Source: Candidatus Micrarchaeia archaeon | GTDB lineage: Archaea > Micrarchaeota > Micrarchaeia > CAILAH01 | Assembly (NCBI GenBank): GCA_038740245.1 | Contig: JAVYLZ010000015.1 | Location: 1-14,524 of the forward strand | DNA length: 14,524 nt | Direction of reading: 5' to 3' | Shown here: positions 1-5,114 of the stretch, one piece after another | Layout: each line of letters opens with the position of its first letter | Position numbering within the stretch: the stretch's first letter is position 1 | The notes under the pieces: model-generated | Databases searched by the model: none | Seen by the model: only the letters and a program-made list of their open reading frames with translations | Told to the model about the DNA's origin: nothing | Position numbers and translations under genes: made by a program

Positions 1-57
1 CCAAAAGCAGATGCTATCAGCCACAACAGCGGTTTGCCTAACGCTGCCGGGCTTCAT
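1..57 (-). CDS. Possible 5' part of a gene running off the left edge (MKPGSVRQTAVVADSICFW...), product unknown
   Basis: Open frame from ATG at 57 to the window edge, with a GGTGG Shine-Dalgarno-like motif just upstream and a TTTATATA box near 81-88 on the minus strand. Alternative ATG at 69. Too short to identify. Confidence 0.35.
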   Translation of the reverse strand, partial: MKPGSVRQTAVVADSICFW

Positions 58-178
58 AACCACCAACATCTGGCTGGCAATATATAAAAACATGCCGCGC
101 TCTAGCAAAAATTTGTGCATATTATCTTTTATTGTCTTGCGCTATAATATTAGCGCTGAAAAGGGATGTGGTGGTGCC

Positions 179-331
179 ATGGCATTTGAAAAAATGATTG
201 TATGCCCCTGCTGCAGGGCTGAGAAGGGGATGGATTTTGTGATTTTTGAAAAAGACGGCGAGTTCCACTGCCCGCACAATCCAGGGCACAAGTTCAAGTT
301 CAACAGCGACGGCCTTATTGTTTTCCTTTAA
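179..331 (+). CDS. Small Zn-ribbon-like protein, 50 aa
   Basis: MAFEKMIVCPCCRAEK...FHCPHNPGHKF contains CxxC plus CxxxxxH metal-binding knuckles. GGTGGTG RBS lies directly before ATG 179. The ORF-track extension to 11 crosses an AT-rich promoter region. Confidence 0.7.
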   Translation: MAFEKMIVCPCCRAEKGMDFVIFEKDGEFHCPHNPGHKFKFNSDGLIVFL

Positions 332-358
332 TTCCATTTCCTGATTTTTCCAAAAAAG

Positions 359-572
359 TGGAGGGGAGGAGATTTATTCGCCACGGATGCCGTGGGTTGC
401 GAAGGGCAGTGCAGGGGACCCTCCGTTTGAACTCCTGAACCCGCTAGGGGACCGGACTTTTTATTTACCAACCTAGCATTTTCGCGGGGCGAAAATAGCT
501 GGGGTTGCGAATGGGGCGGATACACCCCATTCGTCCTAAATCCGGCGCGTTTGACCGCTCCGCCACCCCTCC
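359..572 (-). tRNA. tRNA-Leu(TAG) with two introns: 458-534 (77 nt, position 37/38) and 374-426 (53 nt, T-loop, about 58/59)
   Basis: Spliced product, 84 nt: GGAGGGG TG GCGGAGCGGTCAAACGC G CCGGA TTTAGG^G TCCGG TCCCCTAGCGGGTTC AGGAG TTCAA^AT CTCCT CCCCTCC A. Perfect acceptor, anticodon and T stems, long variable arm, A73, no encoded CCA. Relaxed BHB-like junctions: TTTA/TAAA helix with AA|G bulge, and GTTC/GAAT helix with AA|A bulges. Confidence 0.92.
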
Positions 573-690
573 GAACGAAGTGAGGGGGTGCGGGACATCA
601 GCAAAGCTGATGCTGACCGCCACCCCTCCATAGAGGGCTCCGGCCACTATGGCCCGGTAATTTTTGCCTCGGCAAAAAATACGCGGACCC
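573..690 (-). other. Structured putative 5' leader of tRNA-Leu: hairpin array with a 13-nt direct repeat of the tRNA 5' end
   Basis: ccgccacccctcc occurs at both 560-572 and 617-629. Its imperfect inverted copy gagggggtgcgg is at 582-593. Hairpins catcagc-aaa-gctgatg (596-612) and tttttgcc-tc-ggcaaaaa (661-678). The nearest TATA box is at 712-718. Confidence 0.55.
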
Positions 691-711
691 ATTTCCTTGA
701 ACATTCCAAAC

Positions 712-724
712 TATATAACCTTTC
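712..724. promoter_or_regulatory. BRE/TATA element between divergent tRNA-Leu and nth, possibly bidirectional
   Basis: Minus strand reads GAAAGG-TTATATA. Plus strand reads TATATAA, starting 30 nt before the in-frame ATG at 742. Confidence 0.55.
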
Positions 725-741
725 TAATGAAACGTTTTCCG

Positions 742-1416
742 ATGCTTGGAAACAAAAAGTTTATGGCTGGCCTCCCCAAATGCCTTTCACGAATGGAAAA
801 AATGGCCAAAAAAATGGATGCGCCGGTAATGCGGCTTGAGGGCCATTCAAAGGAAACGCCTTTCAAGATTCTCGTATACACAATGCTCTCTGCGCGCACC
901 AGGGATGAAGCCACTATTGAGGCAGCAAAACGGCTTTTCTCACGGTTTAAGACGGTTAAGCAGATAGCTGAAGCCGATGAGGAGGAATTGCAGGAGCTCA
1001 TACGGCCAGTTGGGTTTTACAAAGAAAAGGCACGGCGCCTCAAGCAGATGTGCGTGCTCCTGCTGGGACGGTTCGGCGGCAAAGTCCCAAAAACACTGGA
1101 TGGCCTAACTTCACTTCCTGGCGTGGGCATCAAGACCGGCAACATTGTGCTCGCGCGGGCGTTTGGCCATAACGTTATCGGCGTTGATACCCACGTGCAT
1201 CGGATAAGCAATCGGCTGGGCCTCGTCAAAACAAAAACCCCGGAGCAAACAAGCGCGCTTCTCAATAAGGGCATCCCAGAAAAATACAGGAGGCGGCTTA
1301 ACAGGATATTTGTGGGGTTTGGGCAAACGATATGCAGGCCGGTTGGGCCAAGGTGCGGCATATGCCCCATTTACGAGATATGCCCGCGCATAGGCGTGCA
1401 TACGAAACATTTATAA
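742..1416 (+). CDS. nth: Endonuclease III (HhH-GPD DNA glycosylase/AP lyase with 4Fe-4S cluster)
   Basis: PFKILVYTMLSARTRD, HhH motif LPGVGIKTG with catalytic Lys, VDTHVHRISNRLG with catalytic Asp, and C-x6-C-x2-C-x5-C (CRPVGPRCGICPIYEIC). Start uncertain (742, 763 or 793). The ORF-track start at 664 overlaps the tRNA leader and promoter. Confidence 0.93.
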   Translation: MLGNKKFMAGLPKCLSRMEKMAKKMDAPVMRLEGHSKETPFKILVYTMLSARTRDEATIEAAKRLFSRFKTVKQIAEADEEELQELIRPVGFYKEKARRLKQMCVLLLGRFGGKVPKTLDGLTSLPGVGIKTGNIVLARAFGHNVIGVDTHVHRISNRLGLVKTKTPEQTSALLNKGIPEKYRRRLNRIFVGFGQTICRPVGPRCGICPIYEICPRIGVHTKHL

Positions 1417-1461
1417 TAATAAAATGAGAAGGACATCTGGTTATTCGGCTGCGGTGAGTGG

Positions 1462-2391
1462 ATGGTTAAAGGTTCTCTTGTCAAAAAGAAGTATGATTTA
1501 AGCCTTGTCCCTGTGCGGAACGACGGTGCCAACGTGGGGCTGCGCAAGTCAATAAAGGAAGACCTGCGCGAGGGCGCAACACACACGGAGATTGCGCTGA
1601 AGCTGCTGAATAATGAGGAGGCAAAGGTGCGCATAAACCCCAAAATACTAACTCCGGACGCAGTCATCGCAAAATTCGTGGCCGAAAACCCTGAGCTTGC
1701 AAAAAACCACAAGGAAGTGCTCGCTGAATCCTCGCGCATAAACTACAGCCTTGATAAGGCGCCCAACCACAAGGCGTTTGCGATATGGGCGCTCGTATCC
1801 TCGCACCTGTTTTACCCTGAGATAAGCGGCAGGCATTTCACCAAGCACCCCACTTTTGAGCACGCCGAGATGGACCTGAAGGAGCTTTACTCAAGCCTTG
1901 GCAAGGTGCTGCAGGGTGAGGACGGGCCGCACATTGACACGATTGCAAAGTTCACTGACAAGATGGCAACTGAGACTGCCACCGTGCGTACAATGCTTGA
2001 TGAGGAAGAGCAGCGTGTCTCAGAGCTTGTGCAGGATGCACGGAAAGTGTGCGACCTTCTGCACGCTGCCGGCTACAAGGCAATAGTGCTTAAGGAAGGC
2101 GAGAAGATTGACCCGCTGGTGCTCAACATCGCAGCCAATTCGGAAGATGAGCGGGCGTTCTTGGTTGTAAAGCCGAGCGGCAAGCGGCTCAAGGTTTCCC
2201 TGAGGGCAGTCAAGGGCAAAATTGGCGCAAACCTGTACCGTGTGCTTAATGAGGAAGAGCGCATTGCGCGCGGCGGCGAAGAGCTTCACGATACGTGGAG
2301 TGGGAGCCAAATCGCGGGCGGTGCACCGCTTGACGGCACGGCAATAAGCTTTGGCAGGCTGGCTGTGGTGCTTTCAAAGCATAAATGCTAA
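1462..2391 (+). CDS. Hypothetical protein, 309 aa, with a DHHA1-like C-terminal domain (possibly a degenerate DHH-family protein)
   Basis: GGTGAG RBS upstream. The C-terminus KVSLR...LYRVLNEEE...WSGSQIAGGAP..GTAIS resembles the DHHA1 S-x-R / GG..AGG pattern. No intact DxD or DHH motif is visible. Confidence 0.6.
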   Translation: MVKGSLVKKKYDLSLVPVRNDGANVGLRKSIKEDLREGATHTEIALKLLNNEEAKVRINPKILTPDAVIAKFVAENPELAKNHKEVLAESSRINYSLDKAPNHKAFAIWALVSSHLFYPEISGRHFTKHPTFEHAEMDLKELYSSLGKVLQGEDGPHIDTIAKFTDKMATETATVRTMLDEEEQRVSELVQDARKVCDLLHAAGYKAIVLKEGEKIDPLVLNIAANSEDERAFLVVKPSGKRLKVSLRAVKGKIGANLYRVLNEEERIARGGEELHDTWSGSQIAGGAPLDGTAISFGRLAVVLSKHKC

Positions 2392-2392
2392 G

Positions 2393-3193
2393 CTAACCCT
2401 TCTTTTCTGGCGCGTGCGCAGGAAGCCGTATTTTGCCCAGAAGCGCGGCCAGTTTTGATATCTCAACTGACTTGCTTTCCACTATTGAGACCTTTGCATC
2501 ATCAAGGCGCATAAGCAGAAATGCAAGGTCCTGCTCCTCCTTTAAGTCGGAGGCAAACTTTGAGAGCACATCAGCACTTAGCCGTGCGCTGCCGCTGCCG
2601 TACGCACCTACCATCAGCACGCGGCGCTCAAGCACGTGCGGGCCCTTGTAAACCTCAAACACCGAGGCCGGCTTCCTGAGCAGTGTGCCTTCCGTCTTTG
2701 GCTCAACTGCCATAAAATCCATGCCAAGGCTGCGCATAAATTCCACGGCTTCGGCGTGCCGCCCCTTTATGCTCGGTGAGGCAATAAATCCCTTGGCCTC
2801 AAACCCGTTCTCAGCCATGTAATCCCTTGCGGCAGTGGACATAAATGCGACCATGGCCTTTGCATTGCAATCCTTGGCAACCATAAAATCCTTGAGGTAT
2901 ATGTACTGGGAGGATTTTGAATAGATGAAATGCCCTACTGCAACCGCATTGCCGGCCATATCCTTGCCGATAATCATGAAATTGATGCTCTTGGTAATCC
3001 CGTAATCACGCGTGTAAGTGAGCCGGTCTATTATCTGGTCGTTTATGAAATTGCGGAGTATGGTGTCGCGCACAATCATGTTCAGCGCGTTTTGCTTGAG
3101 CGTCAGGTTTGAGCTGTCGGTCACCGTGAACGGAGTGACCATATAGCCCTGCGCGAGCGCCTGTGAAGACAGCTCTGCAAGCTCCTGTGACAT
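2393..3193 (-). CDS. Hypothetical protein, 266 aa, possible divergent GNAT-fold acetyltransferase
   Basis: Real start is likely MSQELAEL at 3193, with a TTTATA box at 3216-3221 suggesting a leaderless transcript. FMIIGKD..GNAVAVGHF...YIYLKDFMV and AVEFMRSLGMDF resemble the GNAT beta2-4 strands and motif B. Confidence 0.6.
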   Translation of the reverse strand: MSQELAELSSQALAQGYMVTPFTVTDSSNLTLKQNALNMIVRDTILRNFINDQIIDRLTYTRDYGITKSINFMIIGKDMAGNAVAVGHFIYSKSSQYIYLKDFMVAKDCNAKAMVAFMSTAARDYMAENGFEAKGFIASPSIKGRHAEAVEFMRSLGMDFMAVEPKTEGTLLRKPASVFEVYKGPHVLERRVLMVGAYGSGSARLSADVLSKFASDLKEEQDLAFLLMRLDDAKVSIVESKSVEISKLAALLGKIRLPAHAPEKKG

Positions 3194-3227
3194 GCTAGTA
3201 TATTGGCAGTGTGTGTATAAAAAGGTA

Positions 3228-3555
3228 TAGCCCCGCCAGGATTTCCGACCCTGTAACACACCACTTTTAGGGGGGAGGGTCCCGCACGACACGCATTCGG
3301 CAAAGCCGAATTGTGCCCCATCTTCGCAAAGCGAAGATGATGGGTGGAGGGGATGTGCCCCTCCCATCAGTGTTCGAACCTGGGTCTATGGGTTTCTCTA
3401 ATGTGTTTTCGGGCGAGCCCGAAAACTGCCGGGTTTGTAAGGGCAGGCACTCCATCCCACGGTTTTTGAGCTTGCTCAAAAACTCCCGGGGTTATATGGA
3501 GCGGCAGCCCACTATTTCCAAAGCCCACCATCCTTGGCCACTAGACGACGGGGCT
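3228..3555 (-). tRNA. tRNA-Gln(TTG) with two introns: 3394-3517 (124 nt, 37/38) and 3242-3372 (131 nt, T-loop 59/60)
   Basis: Spliced product, 73 nt: AGCCCCG TC GTCTAGTGGCCAAGGAT G GTGGG CTTTGG^A CCCAT AGAC CCAGG TTCGAA^T CCTGG CGGGGCT A. Archaeal Gln A1-U72 pair. Both junctions form good BHB motifs: CTTT/AGAG with GG|A and AA|A bulges, and TTCG/CGGA with AA|C and AA|T bulges. Confidence 0.95.
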
Positions 3556-3582
3556 ATACAACCCTAATTAGTGCGGAAAAAC

Positions 3583-3590
3583 CATATATA
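3583..3590 (-). promoter_or_regulatory. TATA box of tRNA-Gln
   Basis: TATATATG on the minus strand, about 28-35 nt upstream of tRNA position 1. Confidence 0.5.
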
Positions 3591-3623
3591 CCTGCACAAA
3601 AAGCAGCGCCCACTCCCCAACGG

Positions 3624-4352
3624 TCAGCGGACTTCCTCATAATGCGAATGCGGCCTCCCAAACAGTTCGTACCTGAGGGTGTTTGATGCGTGGAACCCGA
3701 CAAACTTTATGTAGCCCCATTTCTTAAGCCGGCGCACGCTCGTGTAAACGACTGCATCGTTATGGAATGCAAACTTGCCTTTTCCTACAAGGCGCATGCT
3801 TAGATCCCCGTCCTCAAAGGTTACGAGTTTTTCGTTGAACCCGCCAACCTCAAAAAACCTGTCCCTGCGGAATGCGCTGTTTGAGCCTATAAATGCAGGT
3901 TTCCCAAGCAGCAATAGCAATTTCATCCATTTTCTTGTGTAAAGCTTTGCGCCCGTGCTTACCAGCAGGTTTTCATGCCCGCGCAGGCGCTCAAGCGGGA
4001 GTATGGGGCCTGTTGCAGCTATGCAATCTTTATCAGCAAACGCATCATGGTATGCTGCGACAAGTCGCTTTGAGGCAACACTATCGCCGTCTATGAATAT
4101 CAGATGCTTGCCCTTCGCCGCCTTTGCACCGGCATTCCTGCCAACTGCAATCCCCCGCGGGCACAGCACCACTTTATCAGCATATTTCTCTGCAATGTCA
4201 ACCGTGCTATCCGTGCTGTGGCTATCCGCAACAATAACTTCGTATGAGCAATCGGTATCCTGCAGTGCCAACGACTGCAGGCACCGCCCTATCAGCTTTT
4301 CCTCATTGAAAGTCGGGACTATGATGGAGAATTCCGGCAACGCACCCACCAT
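3624..4352 (-). CDS. Glycosyltransferase family 2
   Basis: FSIIVPTFNEE, EVIVADSHSTDST, GRNAGA, FIDGD (DxD), GGFNEKLVTFEDGDL, TSVRR. The ATG overlaps the ferredoxin stop (TGATG). Confidence 0.92.
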   Translation of the reverse strand: MVGALPEFSIIVPTFNEEKLIGRCLQSLALQDTDCSYEVIVADSHSTDSTVDIAEKYADKVVLCPRGIAVGRNAGAKAAKGKHLIFIDGDSVASKRLVAAYHDAFADKDCIAATGPILPLERLRGHENLLVSTGAKLYTRKWMKLLLLLGKPAFIGSNSAFRRDRFFEVGGFNEKLVTFEDGDLSMRLVGKGKFAFHNDAVVYTSVRRLKKWGYIKFVGFHASNTLRYELFGRPHSHYEEVR

Positions 4353-4639
4353 CAATAGACGCTTTCAACCTCAATTGCTCCATCCTTCTCAATTATAACC
4401 TGGCATGCGAGCCGCTTGTCATCCTCTGCACCGAGCATCTCCAGCGTCCTTGCCTCGTTTGGCGTCCTCTTGTTCAGGAACTCCATACCCTTTTTAATGC
4501 TCACAAGGCACGTGCCGCACCGGCCATCCGAGCACGCAAAGTGCACGCTGGCACCCTGCTCCTCAATCACCTTCTTGAGCGGTGTGCCCACAGGGACTTC
4601 CACTTCAATGTTATCTCCTGGAAACCTAACTTTTGCCAT
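4352..4639 (-). CDS. 2Fe-2S ferredoxin, 95 aa
   Basis: FACSDGRCGTC (C-x4-C-x2-C) followed by RLACQ. Confidence 0.92.
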   Translation of the reverse strand: MAKVRFPGDNIEVEVPVGTPLKKVIEEQGASVHFACSDGRCGTCLVSIKKGMEFLNKRTPNEARTLEMLGAEDDKRLACQVIIEKDGAIEVESVY

Positions 4640-4692
4640 CTAAATCAACCAAAGATATTATGAAAAGAGGTTTTTTAAGCATAAAATTGGAA

Positions 4693-5048
4693 AGCCCCCG
4701 ATGGGATTTTTGGGCAGCCAAAAGGGTTTTCTTTTGAACCCGAGGGCCTTTTCTTTTCCAAAAGAAAAGGGGCTCGAACCCACGACCTCTCGCTATAGGG
4801 GCGTATCCATCCCCTGTATCCCGGTAGTTTTCCGGCAAGGCCGAAAACAGCGCGGGGGCAGAATGGACTGCATTCCCTATTGTTGAGACGCACATCTTTG
4901 CAAGGCAAGAGTGCGCCAATTTCGCGCAGGGCGAAATTGAAGGGGGAAAGGGGGTTGCACGCAAAGCGTGCAAATTGTCGGCGAAGCCGACAAATGCCCC
5001 TTTCACCCTTCTTACAAGGCGAGCGCTCTACCACTGAGCTACGGAGGC
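4693..5048 (-). tRNA. tRNA-Thr(TGT) with two introns: 4795-5012 (218 nt, anticodon loop) and about 4707-4772 (66 nt, T-loop 59/60)
   Basis: Spliced product, 72 nt: GCCTCCG TA GCTC AGTGGTA GAGC G CTCGC CTTGTA^A GCGAG AGGTC GTGGG TTCGAG^T CCCAT CGGGGGC T. All four stems pair and U73 is typical of archaeal Thr. Exact splice points are uncertain by 1-2 nt because the BHB motifs are imperfect. Confidence 0.88.
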
Positions 5049-5072
5049 CTTTGTGGATTTTATGCAAGTAAT

Positions 5073-5080
5073 CTTTATAT
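5073..5080 (-). promoter_or_regulatory. TATA box of tRNA-Thr
   Basis: ATATAAAG on the minus strand, about 25-32 nt upstream of tRNA position 1. Confidence 0.45.
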
Positions 5081-5114
5081 CCTATCTGCATATTGGGAAT
5101 GCAAAAAAGGGGAT

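Follow-up and report, generated by a model that had tools for sequence, protein, structure and literature searches.

How tRNA genes that consist mostly of intron can remain working genes, and where so much intron sequence came from, are the questions raised by the window analysed here, a 14,524-nt contig (JAVYLZ010000015.1, contig C15 below) from the draft assembly of a Candidatus Micrarchaeia archaeon (GCA_038740245.1; 688 kb in 41 contigs, 81% complete). In this window, genes for tRNA-Leu(UAG), tRNA-Gln(UUG) and tRNA-Thr(UGU) were found with long inserts in both the anticodon loop and the T-loop. Taken as a whole, the analysis makes it quite probable that these are working genes whose long precursors are spliced by the endonuclease EndA together with RtcB, and that their introns, tolerated as passengers, have been enlarged by copied hairpin modules. 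Each gene would be transcribed as a long precursor, in which an EndA of the epsilon2 type would cut local bulge-helix-bulge motifs and RtcB would join the exons, as the motifs and enzymes recognizable in the sequences suggest. Because EndA reads the junction alone, the interior of an intron would be free to grow. Growth would have come from short hairpin modules, able to fold by themselves, that were copied from one tRNA locus to another, from tandem duplications, and from new introns that inserted where a splice junction already existed.

Three interrupted tRNA genes in the window

The genes were located with our own spliced-tRNA scan, which is based on the pairing of the acceptor stem, D-arm and T-arm and permits long inserts (Table 1). 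The scores obtained were 45.8 (Leu), 34.1 (Gln) and 49.5 (Thr), whereas nothing in the reversed genome scored above 27.7, and the predicted folds of the three pre-tRNAs had z values of −5.0 to −5.7. A preliminary description of this DNA had reported inserts of 77+53, 124+131 and 218+66 nt, accounting for about 61–80% of each gene and concealing the cloverleaf until removed. Parsing reproduced these lengths exactly, the measured intron shares were 61% (Leu), 78% (Gln) and 80% (Thr), and ARAGORN called all three genes, with anticodons UAG, UUG and UGU, after removal of the inserts in silico, while neither ARAGORN nor Rfam detected any tRNA in the raw window. In contrast, the claim that the same two sites are occupied in three of three tRNAs had to be corrected, as the T-loop sites differ (58/59 in Leu, 59/60 in Gln and 56/57 in Thr). 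Each T-loop site is the best splice-motif register among the registers giving a valid loop, and the 56/57 site is independently backed by genes of relatives in which no other register rebuilds the T-loop, such as tRNA-Lys(UUU) of G002 and G006. All four central pairs of the bulge-helix-bulge motif were present in five of the six inserts, the 218-nt insert of tRNA-Thr being the exception. Regarding self-splicing, no group I or group II ribozyme core was found in the window by Rfam at E-values up to 5, with two weak and unrelated matches as the only hits.

Table 1. Coordinates of the tRNA genes, their putative introns and the Leu leader in the window (central helix given as pairs formed out of four).
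Feature	Length (nt)	Position	Strand	Details
tRNA-Leu(UAG) gene	214	359..572	-	exons 572-535, 457-427, 373-359; mature 84 nt
Leu intron at 37/38	77	458..534	-	central helix 4/4, exon helix 6 bp
Leu T-loop intron at 58/59	53	374..426	-	central helix 4/4
Leu leader, hairpin-filled		573..690	-	tRNA 5′ end duplicated over 13 nt at 629-617
tRNA-Gln(UUG) gene	328	3228..3555	-	exons 3555-3518, 3393-3373, 3241-3228; mature 73 nt
Gln intron at 37/38	124	3394..3517	-	strict bulge-helix-bulge (4/4, h 5, h′ 3)
Gln T-loop intron at 59/60	131	3242..3372	-	strict bulge-helix-bulge (4/4, h 5, h′ 3)
tRNA-Thr(UGU) gene	356	4693..5048	-	exons 5048-5013, 4794-4776, 4709-4693; mature 72 nt
Proposed outer Thr intron at 37/38	140	4873..5012	-	motif 3/4
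Proposed inner Thr intron at 37/38	78	4795..4872	-	own motif 4/4, h′ 2
Thr T-loop intron at 56/57	66	4710..4775	-	central helix 4/4, h′ 4

Furthermore, Logan contigs from three hot-spring metagenome DNA runs matched parts of the inserts at ~99% identity, a coverage that argues against misassembly; as the three runs belong to one study, possibly the source campaign, this support is not fully independent. No join skipping an intron was seen among the matching DNA contigs, which are unable to show absence, and a single contig joint at 398-534, considered as such a join, was rejected for being the Leu(CAG) paralog. For positions 300-5100 of the window, no RNA run was among those listed as containing the sequence, a result without bearing on expression. 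Intronless copies of tRNA-Leu(UAG), tRNA-Gln(UUG) and tRNA-Thr(UGU) were not found in the 81% complete assembly. Overall, the three would appear to be working single-copy genes, with splicing predicted from their motifs.

The long insert of tRNA-Thr(UGU)

Taken as one intron, the 218-nt insert of tRNA-Thr(UGU) formed one of the four central pairs at 37/38 and two of four at best, and this reading failed in all registers. It is fairly likely that the insert consists of two introns of 140 and 78 nt, both at 37/38 and spliced in order, and tRNA-Thr(UGU) would then probably carry three introns in all. The 78-nt intron would have landed at the 3′ junction of the 140-nt intron, and from this position the inner intron would have to be removed first. 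The two would abut directly, without exon between them, and the outer one shares its first 73 nt, at 99% identity, with the beginning of the intron in elongator Met(CAU).

The pattern behind this proposal emerged from the parsed genomes taken together, where 20 of 162 anticodon inserts lacked a motif at 37/38. A CCCT, CCTT or CCTC ending followed by two further nucleotides was found in 11 of these 20 inserts, compared to none of the 142 conforming ones, and 10 of the 11 could be split at an AA junction into two motif-bearing introns (shuffled controls gave 0.7 on average and never more than 4 in 400 trials). In those ten, a purine-rich tetramer with AA inside the insert pairs with the insert end, defining the inner intron, and would pair with positions 32-35 once the inner intron is removed, defining the outer one. 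AA is also the commonest bulge pair of the conforming introns (64 of about 140). Inserts containing N were excluded, with the exception of tRNA-Asn of G002, which was retained in the split test. Several points weigh against the two-intron proposal. By itself, the split of tRNA-Thr(UGU) reaches significance only if an AA junction is required (shuffle rate of 0.02, vs. 0.46 when it is not), and this criterion was picked after seeing the data. Moreover, the 11 cases represent only four isotypes (five Asn, three Thr, two Val and one Ile), the fold carrying the inner-intron motif lies 7 kcal/mol above the minimum-energy prediction, and the Pro(CGG) and Cys(GCA) inserts still form two of four pairs and do not split.

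Some of the interrupted genes, above all tRNA-Thr(UGU), could alternatively be pseudogenes disabled by repeat insertion. Such an origin would account for an insert without a one-step splice motif, in an 81% complete assembly where five isoacceptors were not found. However, the exons of tRNA-Thr(UGU) are intact and match those of the paralogous Thr(CGU) gene in length, a second copy did not turn up, and the same end pattern is conserved in the Asn genes of five genomes, where it splits into two introns, all of which makes disabled genes very unlikely. Returning to the proposal of two introns, archaeal tRNA introns that are nested or adjacent and are spliced in a set order were reportedly described by Sugahara in 2007 and Tocchini-Valentini in 2009. 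As in those cases, the removal of one intron would create the motif of the next, whereas here both would lie at the same phosphodiester bond with zero exon between them; no description of back-to-back tRNA introns at one bond was found in the open-access literature.

Splicing enzymes

The preliminary description had called upon a splicing endonuclease of relaxed specificity. This was borne out in the relatives, whose enzyme is of the epsilon2 type, but not in this genome, as no EndA was found in its 81% complete assembly, which counts against splicing of the genes as proposed. EndA was present in 20 of 20 relatives. The EndA locus of G001 and G002 adjoins tRNA-Arg(CCU), and the EndA gene of the present genome likely falls in an assembly gap because this neighbouring tRNA sits at the first bases of contig C26. 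The EndA of G002, which belongs to the same genus (386 amino acids), matched the epsilon2 EndA of ARMAN-2 (4FZ2) over its full length (E 5e−125). It shows the three-unit organization of about 390 amino acids, the ASL loop and the Y-H-K triad, retaining Y236, H251 and K282 in addition to Y160-K161 of the ASL (residues named as in the text of PMC12397907). According to the main text of PMC3239211, the ARMAN-2 enzyme cleaves a relaxed intron at 59/60. As for exon joining, RtcB was found in 21 of 21 genomes, including this one.

Two further observations were made on these proteins. A second EndA-like protein of ~150 amino acids, with a weak PF01974 match, was detected in G001-G005, G007 and G008, its gene usually having a HIT-like neighbour and being fused to a HAD-like domain in G004; none was found in the present genome by tblastn. 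In addition, RtcB is split by ~450-500 extra residues within one open frame in G002 (contig C49), G003 (contig C19), G016 and G017, these extra residues probably being an intein.

Census of tRNA introns in the genome

A total of 41 tRNA genes were found in the assembly, each anticodon appearing once except for CAU, which appeared twice (initiator and elongator), and five expected isoacceptors were not found in this 81% complete sequence. Of those genes, 38 were interrupted, 24 of them carrying two inserts (one cut by a contig end), and three were uninterrupted; after splicing in silico, all 40 complete genes yielded tRNAs that ARAGORN could call. The 61 complete inserts were located in the anticodon loop (33), the T-loop (27, of which 24 were at 59/60) and the D-loop (1). 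Their median length was 74 nt, ranging from 22 to 287 nt, and 15 exceeded 129 nt; in a review of archaeal tRNA introns, lengths of 11-129 nt with medians of 12-25 nt are given (PMC4090602). A perfect central helix was found in 16 of the 33 anticodon inserts (shuffle mean 3.3, maximum 11 in 1000) and in 23 of the 27 T-loop inserts (shuffle mean 2.2, maximum 7 in 1000).

Both the genome-wide intron expansion and the failure of standard tRNA finders, anticipated from three genes in the preliminary description, hold for the assembly as a whole. Run by default on the whole genome, ARAGORN returned three tRNA genes, and with introns permitted it returned 13 calls, several of them with a wrong isotype or wrong boundaries. 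A relaxed run (-ps90, introns up to 3000 nt) was discarded as a census, since most of its 170 calls were false. With 3 of at least 41 tRNA genes found by standard tools, such genomes are given misleading tRNA counts and quality labels. Among the individual genes, tRNA-Val(UAC) (C24:5594-5766) has a 50-nt D-loop intron at 15/16, the sole D-arm intron found in the genome, and tRNA-Ile(UAU) (C3:4137-4420), whose anticodon is known from ARMAN, has two introns.

Repeat modules within the introns

Segments common to another intron were found in 33 of the 61 introns, compared to none in three shuffled sets, and five of the sharing pairs involved different intron positions, some of them on opposite strands. 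Moreover, 23 introns had matches to DNA outside introns, mostly in tRNA leaders and trailers, and tandem repeats were found in the introns of Glu(UUC), Gln(CUG), Pro(CGG) and Arg(UCU). In the window, the 37/38 intron of Leu(UAG), homologous to its G002 ortholog (77% identity), starts with a hairpin module of the GGGGTT type in reverse orientation, and its T-loop intron has a 42-nt segment in common with the 37/38 intron of Leu(CAG). The 37/38 intron of Gln holds modules that also occur outside introns, and its T-loop intron has a 32-nt segment (91%) in common with the 37/38 intron of Ser(UGA). The intron family of Thr(UGU) at 56/57 is also represented in G001, by the intron of Thr(CGU) (90%), and in G002, by that of Arg(UCU) (78%).

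Near-identical whole introns in different tRNAs, as in the Thermoproteales, were present, the 56/57 family moving between Thr and Arg across genomes. Gene conversion would be the simplest route for whole-intron copying between tRNAs with matching T-arms. Two facts speak against it as the general explanation: whole-length copies at 80% identity or more are few (7 of 61 introns across anticodons and 3 of 61 across amino acids), and gene conversion leaves unexplained the modules at the 5′ junctions of introns at different positions, as well as those in 5S rRNA.

Dispersed short palindromic repeats with defined ends, as in MITE or REPIN-type elements, are present in the form of the GGGGTT-type hairpin, a motif that was defined post hoc on the same data. 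It was found 3.3 times per kb of intron and 1.3 times per kb of tRNA flank, vs. 0.08 for coding sequence and 0.05 for the remaining non-coding DNA, a 15-40-fold enrichment of introns and tRNA flanks relative to coding DNA. A total of 16 out of 27 matches in introns and flanks ended at most 2 nt from an exon boundary (~2 expected), with 11 in reverse orientation at 5′ splice sites and five in forward orientation at +1 or a 3′ site, although these reduce to about ten independent events given intron-family copies and two pairs sharing one end. A copy of the hairpin is also found directly at the 3′ end of the RNase P RNA gene (C1:5424-5801; 68.6 bits, below the gathering threshold). In the 168-nt 5S rRNA gene (C22:856-1023), a 52-nt insert (about 900-951) of another tRNA-intron module was found, flanked by a 3-nt repeat, while the duplications at tRNA ends vary in length. 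This insert has no counterpart in the six family relatives aligned (6/6) and shows a weak splice motif (3/4, h′ 8); either an intron of the 5S gene or an expansion that is not spliced would be conceivable. No description of such a 52-nt insert in 5S rRNA was found in the accessible portions of the open-access literature.

These distributions might alternatively be explained by a small non-autonomous hairpin element that inserts where stable RNAs are processed and has seeded or enlarged the introns, with splicing unchanged. The enzyme for this would act in trans (an HUH nuclease, an integrase, or a reverse transcriptase joining at RNA ends). Analogies would be offered by IS91-like targeting and by the small dispersed repeats reported from tRNA introns of cyanobacteria. 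Besides the concentration at exon boundaries, the occurrence in both orientations, the hairpin next to the RNase P RNA gene and the module-type insert in the 5S rRNA gene, such an element would fit with 18 of the 22 displaced tRNA 3′ ends described below, which start at positions 58-61. It is nevertheless considered doubtful, as the clustering at junctions where the splice motif stays intact could result from selection alone, the post hoc motif covers few independent events, and a family-wide mobilising enzyme was not found. In particular, among nine family genomes, all drafts, the Y1 transposase (PF01797; Y1/RAYT) appeared in none, the tyrosine integrase in none (islands may be missing from drafts), reverse transcriptase in one and Cas1 in one, namely the present genome. 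A broader version, in which a short hairpin inserted precisely at stable-RNA processing boundaries via RNA or cDNA ends is the source of new archaeal introns, would jointly cover the founding and lengthening of tRNA introns, zero-exon twin introns, displaced 3′ ends and a spliceable 5S intron, and as one claim it seems unlikely. Copying of modules into introns that are spliced and tolerated is the preferred reading.

A TnpB-like match in the present genome was rejected as a mobilising enzyme, being the 627-aa Cas12f-like gene of a locus with Cas1 and a CRISPR array of seven repeats (C1:55700-61350); the six spacers of this genome had no match to any intron. Clusters of hairpin modules were also seen away from parsed tRNAs (C19:11870-11997, C3:32050-32550, C6:4800-5200 and C29:1880-1950), with a displaced 3′ end of tRNA-Arg type at the end of the C19 cluster. 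Rfam searches on nine repeat-bearing regions returned the RNase P RNA and a weak, hairpin-like Clostridiales-2 match (E 0.1, below the gathering threshold).

Introns in related genomes

The tRNA loci of eight relatives were collected with a covariance model of the 5′ tRNA half, with up to 30 loci per genome, and the counts are partial, as some genes were missed by the parser (56/57 introns, contig breaks). Two rows were left out, an artefactual Ile parse of 894 nt in G003 and a duplicate from a scaffold gap in G002. Within the family, the loci sampled were interrupted in 20 of 22 (G001), 27 of 27 (G002), 19 of 21 (G003), 8 of 14 (G004), 23 of 29 (G005) and 23 of 26 cases (G006), with median inserts of 65.5, 60.5, 48, 111, 34 and 49 nt, respectively. 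Including the present genome, the family had 239 inserts with a median of 62 nt, 47 of them above 129 nt and a maximum of 386 nt. Outside the family, 12 of 18 loci were interrupted in G019 (median 48 nt), and 11 of 24 in Ca. Micrarchaeum sp. A_DKE (12 inserts, median 26 nt, maximum 67 nt). Long tRNA introns are a family-wide trait and not peculiar to this genome. The preliminary description had named beforehand, as an observation that would speak against it, that introns of this size are routine in relatives, and long double introns were indeed found in six of six family genomes.

The introns themselves turn over fast within the genus. At co-occupied sites, detectable homology was found in 7 of 28 cases with G001 and 4 of 31 with G002, both of the same genus, and in 1 of 79 with the other four family genomes. 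Furthermore, intron presence differed from G001 at 5 of 42 sites and from G002 at 10 of 46. These figures bear on whether the long introns might be kept for functional RNAs that they encode (guides or stable circles). Strong folding would agree with this, as would the Trp(CCA) intron, which measures 138-225 nt in every family genome where it was parsed and in which box C/D guides are established (PMC4090602, review). However, for most introns no homology to their orthologs was detectable even between members of the same genus, and the window had no Rfam match, so that a function of this kind is very improbable. The introns would rather seem to be tolerated passengers with rapid turnover than an adaptation, judging from the sequences compared.

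Contigs of G003 and G004 often break within tRNA introns that start with one repeated module (e.g. loci L209, L215, L220 and L237), and assemblies thereby lose tRNA 3′ halves.

Displaced tRNA 3′ ends and a possible protection from integration

Of 221 parsed genes, 22 were followed 60-213 nt downstream by a duplicate of their own 3′ end. In the present genome this affected 7 of 40 genes, six of them with an intron in the T-loop. In G004, a T-arm with a 59/60 insert is present in three displaced copies, but the working gene has no intron. The T-loop is a rearrangement hot spot, which the introns did not prevent.

The preliminary description had suggested that the introns protect against integration, an idea proposed by Randau and Soll as summarised in PMC4033280, in which T-loop introns would be kept because they block viruses or plasmids from integrating at the tRNA 3′ half. 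The abundance of T-loop introns (27 of 40 complete genes, 24 of them at 59/60) would agree with such a role, and the displaced copies mark the region as a recombination hot spot. The suggestion is nevertheless unsupported by the data, and we regard it as quite unlikely: the displaced ends occur mainly at genes with a T-loop intron, the G004 copies hold the intron that the working gene has lost, none of the nine family genomes had a tyrosine integrase (with the reservation on drafts made above), and half of the introns sit in the anticodon loop.

Relation to known intron systems

Transposed families of tRNA introns were reportedly described in the Thermoproteales by Fujishima et al. in 2010. 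The present introns resemble those of the Thermoproteales in that similar sequences occur across tRNAs and positions, most genes are multiply interrupted and the arrival mechanism is unknown, as far as the texts of PMC4090602 and PMC4033280 go. In contrast to them, sharing here mostly concerns modules smaller than an intron (33/61) and less often whole introns (7/61 at 80%), modules lie on both strands and outside introns, and the introns are about three times longer. The closest system is similar in phylum, enzyme type, T-loop introns at 59/60, multiple introns and tRNA-Ile(UAU): ARMAN-2, Candidatus Micrarchaeum acidiphilum, has intron-rich tRNA genes and an epsilon2 EndA (Fujishima et al. 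2011, PMC3239211). Its introns named in the main text are, however, of 13 and 25 nt, while those found here have the median and maximum given above and are built from repeats. The Asgard archaea (bioRxiv 10.64898/2026.10.13.758758) likewise have nearly all tRNA genes interrupted and missed by software, motif enrichment and rapid gain. Unlike here, their inserts have medians of 22-23 nt, 1.5% belong to cross-type families and no arrival route was found, whereas donor-like sequences are visible in the same genome in our case. The ARMAN-2 and Asgard comparisons refer to the main texts, and the supplements may list longer introns.

Several parts of the present system are already known in the texts cited: T-loop and multiple introns with an epsilon2 EndA from ARMAN-2, transposition from the Thermoproteales and heavy interruption from the Asgard archaea. 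No description was found in the open-access literature of tRNA introns of this length as the norm of a lineage, or of introns made up of repeats that other stable-RNA genes also contain. The entry of intron DNA into archaeal tRNA genes is considered the central open problem in the 2026 Asgard preprint (bioRxiv 10.64898/2026.10.13.758758), and with donor-like modules, displaced ends and within-genus turnover in one family, the arrival route becomes testable by strain comparison. Moreover, the back-to-back Thr introns and the 5S insert offer short direct assays for a crystallised enzyme type.

Further features of the window

Upstream of the tRNA-Leu(UAG) gene, the nearest TATA-like box is located ~146 nt from +1, and the Leu(UAA) gene of G003 is preceded by a 5′ duplicate resembling that of the window gene. 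Finally, at the contig end (positions 1-70, minus strand), a weak fluoride-riboswitch-like match of 16 bits (gathering threshold of 34) was found, with a TATA-like box just upstream.

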